Assembly: GCF_016026235.1 (NCBI RefSeq)
Contig: NZ_CP065613.1
Direction: 5' to 3' (one strand)
DNA from: Escherichia coli
GTDB lineage: Bacteria; Pseudomonadota; Gammaproteobacteria; Enterobacterales; Enterobacteriaceae
DNA length: 64,000 nt
Shown: in pieces, positions 39,173 through 40,877 of the stretch
Layout: each line of letters opens with the position of its first letter
How positions within the stretch are numbered: the first letter of the stretch is position 1
Translations under genes and position numbers: made by a program
The notes under the pieces: model-generated
The model's input: only the letters and a program-made list of their open reading frames with translations
Databases searched by the model: none
What the model was told of the DNA's origin: nothing

Positions 39173-39244
39173 GTGTGTGCAATATACGAAAAAAAAGCCC
39201 GTACTTTCGTACGGGCTCTTCTTTAAATATGGCGGTGAGGGGGG
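39173..39244. repeat. 72-bp direct repeat, copy A (displaced copy of the serX 3' acceptor end plus terminator)
   Basis: gtgtgtgcaatatacgaaaaaaaagcccgtactttcgtacgggctcttctttaaatatggcggtgagggggg; identical to 40806-40877 except one g/a mismatch. Confidence 0.85.
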
Positions 39245-39269
39245 TGCCCCTATTAAGTTGTCAAGCATG

Positions 39270-40466
39270 TTATGACCCCTGCGGGGTATAAAAAGTCCCG
39301 TCGCGCATCATGGCGAACAGAACGTCGCAGCGTCGTCTCGCCAGGGCGATAAGCGCCTGATTGTGTCGTTTTCCCTGACTCATTTTGCGGGTGTAGTAAG
39401 CCCTGGAGAGCGGATCCCTGAGCGCGGCGAAGGCCGACAGGAACAACGCCCGTTTGAGAGCTTTATTACCCCGTCGCGAGGGATGCTCACCGCGTATTGA
39501 CGAGCCGGATCGCCGAGTTACCGGCGCAAGGCCAGCATAAGCAGCGAGATGTGCGGCAGAGGCGAAGGCGCGGCAGGCGACCTCGGTGAGGAGTCTGGCT
39601 GCGGTCCTGACACCGACTCCGGGCATACTGGTCAGGACCGGGTAAAGAGGGTGAGCAAGAACTCGCTGTTCTACCTCAAGCGCCACCTCGTCTCTTTGCT
39701 TACGCAGCGTGATGAGCTGGAGTGCCAGACGTGGCAGTACTACGGCAGCGGCATTCGTGCCGGGAACGACGACGGTTTGTTCGGCCAGTGCCTGAGCTAT
39801 GTCTGCTGCAAGGCGTTTACCCAGACGAGGCGCAAGTTTGCAGAGCTGGGCTGCCAGCTTCTTCTCACCCAGCGAAGCGAGTTTTTCTGGTGAGGGATAT
39901 CGCTGGAGAAGATCGAGTACCGCCGGGTGCTCAAGTCTCGGACCGAGAACGCGCTCCAGTGCCGGATGTATCTGGGTCAGAAGGCCGCGGATACGGTTGC
40001 TGGCCTGCGTTGTCTGTGCGGCAAGATCATCATCGAAGCCGCAGAGCATGGAGAGTTCGGCGATTTGCTCGTCAGCCAGTTTCAGCGTGCGTAGCGCGTG
40101 AGGCAGGGTACGGGCAGCTTCGGCAATGATGGCAGCGTCACGAGCATCAGTTTTAGCTTCACCGGCGTGTAAGTCGGCTATGCGGCGCATGGCCAGTCCA
40201 GGGAGGTATCCGACAAGGACTCCTTCTGAGCGGGCAACGGCGACAGGTAACGCACCGATGGTAGCTGGCTGATCAACAACCAGCAGTATCTGACCATGTT
40301 GTTTCAGGTCAGATATTAGCGACCTGAGTTTGTTTTCGTCGTTGGGTAATGCTTTATCGAACAGGCGTTTACCTGAACGATTAATGGCAACAGCGTGATG
40401 CGTATCTTTACCGACATCAACGCCGATAAAGACCTGGACGGATTCGTAATCGCTGGATTCGGTCAT
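39270..40466 (-). CDS. IS110/IS116/IS902-family DEDD transposase (398 aa)
   Basis: N-terminal VFIGVDVGKDTHHAVAI RuvC-like motif and C-terminal PGVGVRTAARLLTEV...YAGLAPVTRRSGSSIRGEHPSRRGNKALKRALF signature of the IS110 family. Confidence 0.9.
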   Translation of the reverse strand: MTESSDYESVQVFIGVDVGKDTHHAVAINRSGKRLFDKALPNDENKLRSLISDLKQHGQILLVVDQPATIGALPVAVARSEGVLVGYLPGLAMRRIADLHAGEAKTDARDAAIIAEAARTLPHALRTLKLADEQIAELSMLCGFDDDLAAQTTQASNRIRGLLTQIHPALERVLGPRLEHPAVLDLLQRYPSPEKLASLGEKKLAAQLCKLAPRLGKRLAADIAQALAEQTVVVPGTNAAAVVLPRLALQLITLRKQRDEVALEVEQRVLAHPLYPVLTSMPGVGVRTAARLLTEVACRAFASAAHLAAYAGLAPVTRRSGSSIRGEHPSRRGNKALKRALFLSAFAALRDPLSRAYYTRKMSQGKRHNQALIALARRRCDVLFAMMRDGTFYTPQGS

Positions 40467-40805
40467 TCTGTCTCCCTTGTATATGGGTTAACCAGATAAC
40501 CACGGGGAGCAGGTACCGGCATCCACGTTACAGACGGTCCCGGCAAAAGTGCCTGACCTGACCCCTATTAGCGGTTACCAGCGCCCCACCAGACCCGGTG
40601 ACATCACCCCCCGGATCATGGACGACTGGGGGCAGTAATCATGCCGGGTCTGGCTGGCTAACACCCCATTATAAGGGGTACGAATAAAGTAACGGGGATT
40701 GACTCGCTTCGCTCGCCCTGCGGGCAGCCCGCTCACTGCGTTCACGGTCTGTCCAACTGGCTGTCGCCAGTTGTCGAACCCCGGTCGGGGCTTCTCATCC
40801 CCCCA
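40467..40805 (-). ncRNA. candidate structured non-coding RNA (bridge/seeker RNA-like) in the 5' non-coding end of the IS110-family element
   Basis: 339-nt GC-rich region with no credible ORF and several hairpins on the minus strand (gccccgaccggggttcgac, gcgggctgcccgc, ccccttataatgggg). The position is equivalent to where IS621-type elements encode their bridge RNA. Confidence 0.4.
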
Positions 40806-40877
40806 GTGTGTGCAATATACGAAAAAAAAGCCCGTACTTTCGTACGAGCTCTTCTTTAAATATGGCGGTGAGGGGGG
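40806..40877. repeat. 72-bp direct repeat, copy B (native serX 3' end plus rho-independent terminator)
   Basis: Contiguous with the tRNA gene body. Confidence 0.85.

Follow-up and report, generated by a model that had tools for sequence, protein, structure and literature searches.

We analyzed a 64,000-nt stretch of Escherichia coli DNA (NZ_CP065613.1), hereafter the window, in which an insertion sequence (IS) of the IS110 family lies downstream of the tRNA-Ser gene serX. In orthologous IS-free ycdU-serX-ghrA intervals, a tRNA-Ser gene is annotated adjoining ghrA. serX was intact, as an earlier examination of the letters alone (the sequence-only reading) had stated. The same reading had described two direct repeats of 72 nt with one mismatch, covering the serX 3' end and its terminator. 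These were recovered, and extended to 76 nt with two mismatches, a similarity far beyond chance. Each repeat contains the last 15 nt of serX, the hairpin/T8 terminator, and approximately 30 nt further. The two terminator copies differ by G/A (GGGCT in the distal copy and GAGCT in the proximal copy).

The element carries a single gene with a recognizable product. Its 398-aa open reading frame (ORF) matched two Pfam profiles over their full length, PF01548 (E = 6.9e-49, profile positions 1-155 of 155) and PF02371, the C-terminal Tnp domain with the conserved serine (E = 7.1e-22), confirming the earlier assignment to the DEDD transposases of the IS110 family. The C-terminal domain was aligned by phmmer to IS621 (8WT6, E = 1e-14), with the motif YAGLAPVTRRSGSS opposite FAGLTPRRYESGSS. 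In the element region, this recombinase was the only ORF with a domain match, and no tyrosine or serine integrase was found. The protein is 100% identical to copies in Shigella flexneri and E. coli (L005 and L006), and the element is 99.5-99.9% identical over 1,453 nt to RefSeq copies annotated as "IS110-like element ISEc20 family transposase". Judged by this identity, the element is ISEc20, an already catalogued insertion sequence (ISfinder names ISEc20/ISSfl4), and it differs from the other ISEc20/ISSfl4 copies only in its insertion site.

The limits of ISEc20 were set by comparing the window with an empty site in the strain ISHS7 (L001) and with an ISEc20 copy in a lambdoid prophage (L004). 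Along the plus strand, a host G6 run (39239-39244) is followed by the sequence from TGCCCC (from 39245) to GTAAC (40689-40693), then by GGGG (40694-40697), and by host ATTGACTCGC from 40698. The empty site reads G7 and the occupied site G6 plus G4, so that the insert consists of a 1,449-bp body and three G/C pairs, 1,452 bp in total. If a 2-bp core is counted at each junction, as for IS110 elements, 1,450 bp of this length belong to the element and the remaining two to the additional CC core. Since the junctions both fall in a G/C homopolymer, each end could shift by 1-2 nt (Table 1). The left end comprises 227 nt (40467-40693) and the right end 26 nt, and no terminal inverted repeat was reported. 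Comparison of the occupied and empty sites indicated insertion without a long target duplication and with CC at both junctions, in a register that is ambiguous.

DNA common to other ISEc20 copies stops at 40693-40697, whereas 40698-40801 is collinear with IS-free E. coli. Only the left repeat copy abuts the element, at its right end (39244/39245); the right copy starts 104-108 bp past the left end. The sequence-only reading had placed a 1,561-bp element between two bracketing 72-bp copies, but its outer 104-108 bp (40698-40801) are host DNA of the RtT type described below. After the insertion, the two 76-nt copies are 1,633 bp apart, and serX and its own terminator are untouched.

Table 1 Features of the serX-ISEc20 locus (positions in the window).
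Feature	Position	Strand	Remarks
ISEc20 (IS110 family, IS110 group)	39244-40693	minus	approximately 1,450 bp; ends uncertain by 1-2 nt
Recombinase gene	39270-40466	minus	398 aa; DEDD RuvC-like domain and Tnp domain with SGSS serine motif
Right end (RE)	39244-39269	minus	26 nt; outward-facing TTGACA (39264 to 39259); donor segment AATAGGGGCAC
Core dinucleotide, right-end junction	39242-39243		GG on plus strand, CC in element orientation; predicted register
Core dinucleotide, left-end junction	40694-40695		CC in element orientation; predicted register
Bridge-RNA candidate	40505-40693	minus	in the 227-nt left end; 5' hairpin 40679 to 40663; target stem-loop 40654 to 40588; donor stem-loop 40586 to 40505
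Target-loop 5' strand, left target guide candidate	40628-40636	minus	ACUGCCCCC; same as left flank plus core of the best sites, e.g. ATGCCCCC in L005
Target-loop 3' strand, right target guide candidate	40605-40616	minus	AUCCGGGGGGUG; complementary to CCCCCC(G/GG) right flanks
Donor-loop 5' strand, left donor guide candidate	40561-40574	minus	CCGCUAAUAGGGGU; mirrors right end TAATAGGGGC
Donor-loop 3' strand, right donor guide candidate	40521-40532	minus	UGUAACGUGGAU; GUAACG complementary to left-end start CGTTAC
serX, tRNA-Ser(GGA)	40863-40950	minus	intact; ARAGORN; Rfam tRNA 53.8 bits
serX intrinsic terminator, proximal copy	40822-40849	minus	GCTCGTAC-GAAA-GTACGGGC, then T8; inverted repeat I1/I2
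Proximal 76-nt repeat copy	40802-40877		host DNA; spans serX 3' end, terminator and trailer; shared by every IS-free allele
Distal 76-nt repeat copy	39169-39244		host DNA; end of the 181-bp RtT-type unit, with pseudo tRNA 3' end and second terminator copy
RtT-like unit body	40698-40818	minus	host DNA; cut from its last approximately 16 nt (39230-39243); collinear with L001 after removal of the IS

We searched 5,426 complete E. coli genomes with window 38900-41200 as the megablast query. The whole configuration of flanks plus element was absent from all of them; flanks and element were matched separately, the latter annotated as ISEc20. Three IS-free ycdU-serX-ghrA intervals were used as empty sites. 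The interval of VTB96775v (L003) contains one 76-nt segment and no unit; that of ISHS7 (L001) contains one 181-bp unit, with both 76-nt copies 181 bp apart; and that of K-12 TG1 (L002) contains at least 4.4 tandem units with a period of 181 bp and 99% identity. The first 18 nt of every unit, GGCGGTGAGGGGGGGATT, duplicate the tRNA-Ser 3' end, and its last part duplicates the serX trailer and terminator. Upon removal of 1,452 bp, the window is collinear with L001 (98.9% identity over 1,349 nt). The window strain carries the one-unit allele, its single RtT-like unit being split by ISEc20. Across strains, the DNA that follows serX forms an RtT-type tandem repeat whose 181-bp unit varies in number. 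As both 76-nt copies are present in IS-free L001, ISEc20 simply inserted into a tandem repeat that was there before it.

This comparison bears directly on the att-like behaviour that the sequence-only reading had ascribed to the element, for which the alignment of the empty site had been named beforehand as the refuting test. Two copies were already there, with the same G/A difference between their terminators. The idea that integration of ISEc20 generated the 72-76-bp duplication, or that the serX 3' end and terminator serve it as an att site, draws on the tRNA 3' end within the repeats and on the copy that abuts the right end. It has virtually no chance of being correct, given the spacing of 181 bp in IS-free genomes, the existence of alleles with no unit and with at least four, the distance of the second copy from the element, and the 10 other intact ISEc20 sites, none of which has long repeats or a tRNA gene.

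tRNA genes serve as integration sites for islands such as the serX/serW-integrated islands of O157. The window has the same tRNA locus and direct repeats holding the tRNA 3' end. It differs from such islands in that an integrase is lacking, the repeats pre-exist in empty sites, and the repeat is situated mostly downstream of the tRNA gene instead of inside it. A tRNA att-site integrative element was rejected on the first two of these grounds.

At serX, the host repeat corresponds to the RtT repeats found in the tyrT operon (RF00391). Both are tandem units of approximately 180 bp that follow a tRNA gene and start with a copy of its 3' end, but the array in the window is at serX, has a copy number of one, is interrupted by an IS, and scores below the Rfam threshold. 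The tyrT unit is reportedly 178 bp long and repeated 3.14 times. On the interrupted unit (40683-40818), the RF00391 model scored 32.3 bits, below its gathering score of 45; this hit is the host unit, now cut approximately 16 nt from its 3' end. Intact orthologous serX units are labelled "RtT sRNA" in the RefSeq annotation. In the Rfam scan of 38500-41500 (E <= 1), the only matches were the tRNA, the sub-threshold RtT, and chance leader or sRNA matches on the terminator copies. Our search of the literature on ISEc20 and on rtT/tyrT found almost nothing specific. The variable 181-bp array at serX can mimic target duplications.

Of the 5,426 genomes, 1,119 carried full-length ISEc20. Its copies were located on chromosomes, prophages, and plasmids, and the median number of places was one per matching genome. 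Each of the 11 distinct intact ISEc20 sites was a run of 5-9 C when read in the direction of the element. The loci are unrelated and include focB, a plasmid rep region, pINV, and prophages. Relatives with 73-82% protein identity were found in Burkholderiales, other Proteobacteria, and Microbacteriaceae (Actinobacteria), with almost invariant guide segments (L013-L084). Approximately 50 of their sites were nearly all C-runs as well, with the arrangement CCCC/GTTAC...ATAGGGRCAC/CCCCC (slashes mark the junctions). In the window, the insertion point is the G7/C7 run in the pseudo-copy of the tRNA 3' end, and not the terminator. The only C7/G7 run now left in the 64 kb is inside serX (40872-40878); from shuffled sequences, 4.9 runs would be expected. 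Such runs are scarce in the window, and the serX gene is a potential second target for ISEc20.

The right-end junction of the window (91-nt query, 39200-39290) was found in none of the 5,426 genomes, although the flank consisting of the serX 3' end and trailer matched 5,119 of them. This result also bears on the route of the element into this strain. ISEc20 might have arrived together with the serX-RtT segment by homologous recombination from another strain, with no transposition here; one sequence cannot tell the route, and ISEc20 also resides on plasmids and prophages. We consider this unlikely, as no genome with the serX junction that could have been the donor was found in the set, and even then the primary event would still be the insertion of ISEc20 into the C7 run.

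We then examined the left end of ISEc20. In the bridge RNA of IS110 elements, a target and a donor stem-loop come after a 5' stem-loop (PMC11208160). The sequence-only reading had pointed to a structured, non-coding arm of 339 nt as a bridge-RNA candidate; its structure and bridge-RNA layout were retained, but only 227 nt belong to the element, and approximately 104 nt are host repeat. The left ends of 36 relatives were aligned, and the RNAalifold consensus fold and its pair counts were compared with 500 shuffles. The consensus consists of a 5' hairpin and two long stem-loops. In this fold, 95.1% of the cells were paired, compared with 37-53% when the 3' partners were slid, and 23 pairs had changes on both sides. 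Compensatory cells numbered 105, against 34 ± 5 in the shuffles (0 of 500 as high). The fold is kept with many compensatory changes between Proteobacteria and Actinobacteria.

The loops of this RNA were compared with the published rule, by which the 5' strand of a loop has the same sequence as the top strand of the left half-site, and the 3' strand complements the right half-site (PMC11208160, PMC11208158). In the donor loop, AAUAGGGG(U) matches the right end TAATAGGGG(C), and GUAACG(U)GG is the complement of CC(C)GTTAC, with which the left end starts; the segment GUAACG was invariant in all 36 aligned relatives. The purine at position 7 of the donor 5' segment agrees with its right-end counterpart for 49 of the 50 distinct elements (A-A in 11, G-G in 38, and one exception), and the A variant is present in both Duganella and Actinobacteria. 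In the target loop, UGCCCCC and CCGGGGGG(UG) together specify TGCCC[CC]CCCCG, a poly-C run. A handshake, a concept taken from PMC11208158, is conceivable between the CA of the right end and the UG that follows the G-run. Judging from its layout, covariation, and loop matches, the left end of ISEc20 does look like a bridge RNA, and the choice of C-runs by ISEc20 and its relatives is consistent with the poly-C and poly-G segments of this RNA. In the supplementary table of Durrant et al. 2024 (PMC11208160), one row combines the entries ISSfl4, LE, IS110, and ISEc20;ISSfl4, which we read as a left-end bridge RNA predicted for the ISEc20/ISSfl4 cluster.

The predicted 12-mer was matched at 12 of 12 positions by the L005/L006 site, which is at an unrelated locus. 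The other sites matched at 7-9 positions in the predicted register and at up to 11 when the core slips by 1-2 nt, and the serX/RtT site AATCCCCCCCTCA matched at 7-8. The C7 run near serX is therefore only a partial match, and the insertion there is an opportunistic landing, not tRNA- or terminator-directed targeting. Recognition by ISEc20 of the tRNA-Ser 3' end or the RtT unit beyond the C-run is extremely improbable. The insertion point does lie in the 18-nt tRNA 3'-end copy, and the flank of the prophage copy L004 is loosely similar (GGCGGCTGGTGGGGGG vs GGCGGTGAGGGGGG), but the better-matching L005/L006 site is elsewhere, and no other ISEc20 junction with the widespread serX flank exists in the genome set. 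The guide for the serX terminator that had been suggested earlier is contradicted by the poly-C/poly-G strands of the target loop, which point to a C-run and not to the terminator, and by the intact sites at unrelated loci. The same holds for the proposed tRNA-targeting recombinase. Of these claims, the IS110 element and its bridge-RNA-type left end hold up but are already known, and the att-like, tRNA- or terminator-targeting reading is wrong. A false lead is removed: the element shows neither tRNA targeting nor att-like behaviour.

ISEc20 resembles IS621 (PMC11208160, PMC11208158) in several respects. Its recombinase has the same DEDD plus Ser-Tnp architecture; a long left end, with an RNA of a 5' hairpin and two stem-loops, is paired with a short right end; the loop strands follow the same half-site rule; and a conserved candidate -35 element in the right end faces the junction. 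The two elements differ in the core (CC in ISEc20 and CT in IS621) and in the target, which is a homopolymeric C-run for ISEc20 and a repetitive extragenic palindromic (REP) sequence for IS621. The recombinase of ISEc20 has 398 aa instead of 326 aa, with only the C-terminal domain significant by phmmer.

Several observations weigh against an IS621-like mechanism guided by this RNA. The crossover register is ambiguous within the homopolymer: an element ending in GGGGCAC or GGGGCA fits the window, and the handshake dinucleotide fits both, although the flank GCCCGCC/GTTAC of L007, a single site, favours GGGGCAC and the register 39244-40693. The match of the donor 5' guide ends 2-3 nt before the predicted core, unlike in IS621. 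Because all relatives have the same poly-C guides and targets, no target-guide covariation is demonstrable; the variable guide positions 5' of GCCCCC gave no signal against the left flanks in a permutation test over 61 sites (6.82 vs 6.85 matches). The motif TTGAC(A/G/T)...ATAGGGRCAC recurs in almost every relative with a readable right end, and this conserved outward-facing element is consistent with a promoter rebuilt on circularization. However, the best -10 candidate for the junction TTGACA is TACTTT, 19 nt away, with none convincing at 17 nt. A promoter scan of the integrated copy found the serX promoter as its sole hit.

Two further observations of this kind concern the RNA itself. The target guides C5 and G6 are mutually complementary, because the target is a homopolymeric C-run, and the free RNA is predicted to close the target loop. 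No Rfam family, bridge-RNA families included, matched the left end in the scan described above. Both observations would suit a left end that is a mere 5' untranslated region or a promoter/regulatory region for the recombinase gene and not a guide RNA. This alternative is very unlikely, as the fold is conserved with compensatory changes from Proteobacteria to Actinobacteria, the loop strands match the element ends and targets with one covarying position, and the architecture equals that of an IS110 bridge RNA.

Very probably, ISEc20 was inserted in the C7 run of a pre-existing serX array of the RtT type, with an IS621-like mechanism. The one-unit serX allele came first, and ISEc20 then entered the G7/C7 run within the unit's pseudo tRNA end. 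By homology with IS621, we infer that the excised, circular ISEc20 transcribes a bridge RNA of approximately 175-190 nt from its left end and that this RNA base-pairs in the recombinase complex. The circular RE-LE (right end-left end) junction would be expected to read ...AATAGGGGCA-CCC-GTTACTTTATT..., and the donor loop would pair with it through AAUAGGGG on the right-end side and GUAACG on the left-end side. In the target loop, UGCCCCC and CGGGGGG would pair with both strands of a poly-C target, ideally TGCCCCCCCCCG, and the DEDD/Ser recombinase would swap strands at the CC core, the exact position of this crossover being a prediction. The C-run consensus could help tests of ISEc20 as a further bridge recombinase, a principle already published.

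A few junctions depart from the C-run pattern. In E. coli ECMA0423 and S. flexneri SFBU1023 (L010:2712-2760 and L012), the right end of ISEc20 is fused to CGTTACC in mdtA and not to a C-run, and, compared with intact genomes (intact site L096:130-715), approximately 570 bp are gone, comprising ibsA and the 5' portion of mdtA. The mdtA junction mimics the element left-end start CGTTAC, which suggests recombination with a pseudo left-end half-site and an adjacent deletion. The right flank of a relative in Cupriavidus laharis (L049) has a similar junction, ...ATAGGGGCA/CGTTACTACAC..., and this hints that the half-site event recurs.

Speculatively, the clade of ISEc20 and IS110 sensu stricto might use a variant bridge-RNA geometry, in which the target guides are mutually complementary and fixed on poly-C (from Enterobacteria to Burkholderiales and Microbacteriaceae), the donor guide is displaced from the core, and the right end recombines with pseudo left-end half-sites (CGTTAC) to give adjacent deletions of the kind seen at mdtA in S. 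flexneri and E. coli. We consider this proposal doubtful. If it is true, the pseudo tRNA ends in RtT units would be harmless landing pads that spare serX.

Other variants were observed among copies and relatives. The right ends of three relatives (L032, L037, and L053) read ATAG(G)CCCCCC, without the GGGCAC that is usual; the Pandoraea element also has a copy (L055) whose right end is complete. Such ends may be aberrant or alternative crossover products. A solo fragment of 65 nt is 100% identical to window 40633-40697 and comprises 61 nt of the ISEc20 left-end terminus and four flanking G/C (L085:401-465 in E. coli AR_0013; hits H77-H81 and H30). In several genomes, it adjoins a pseudogene of an IS3-type transposase within the Rz region of a prophage, and it is probably the remnant of a truncated ISEc20 copy. 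In O26/O111 genomes (H7 and H73-H75), a relative of approximately 88% nucleotide identity, annotated as "IS110 family transposase", adjoins an ISL3 transposase, and the match spans approximately 70% of the element. Several draft-assembly contigs of 1,456-1,465 bp among the relatives consist of the element alone.

Two ORFs near the left end of ISEc20 (40575-40745 and 40699-40986) were taken as spurious, as they overlap the RNA, repeat, and tRNA regions. The ycdU gene of ISHS7 carries a frameshift annotation; compared with the window and L003, it has a short insertion that accounts for the frameshift (L001:100-130).

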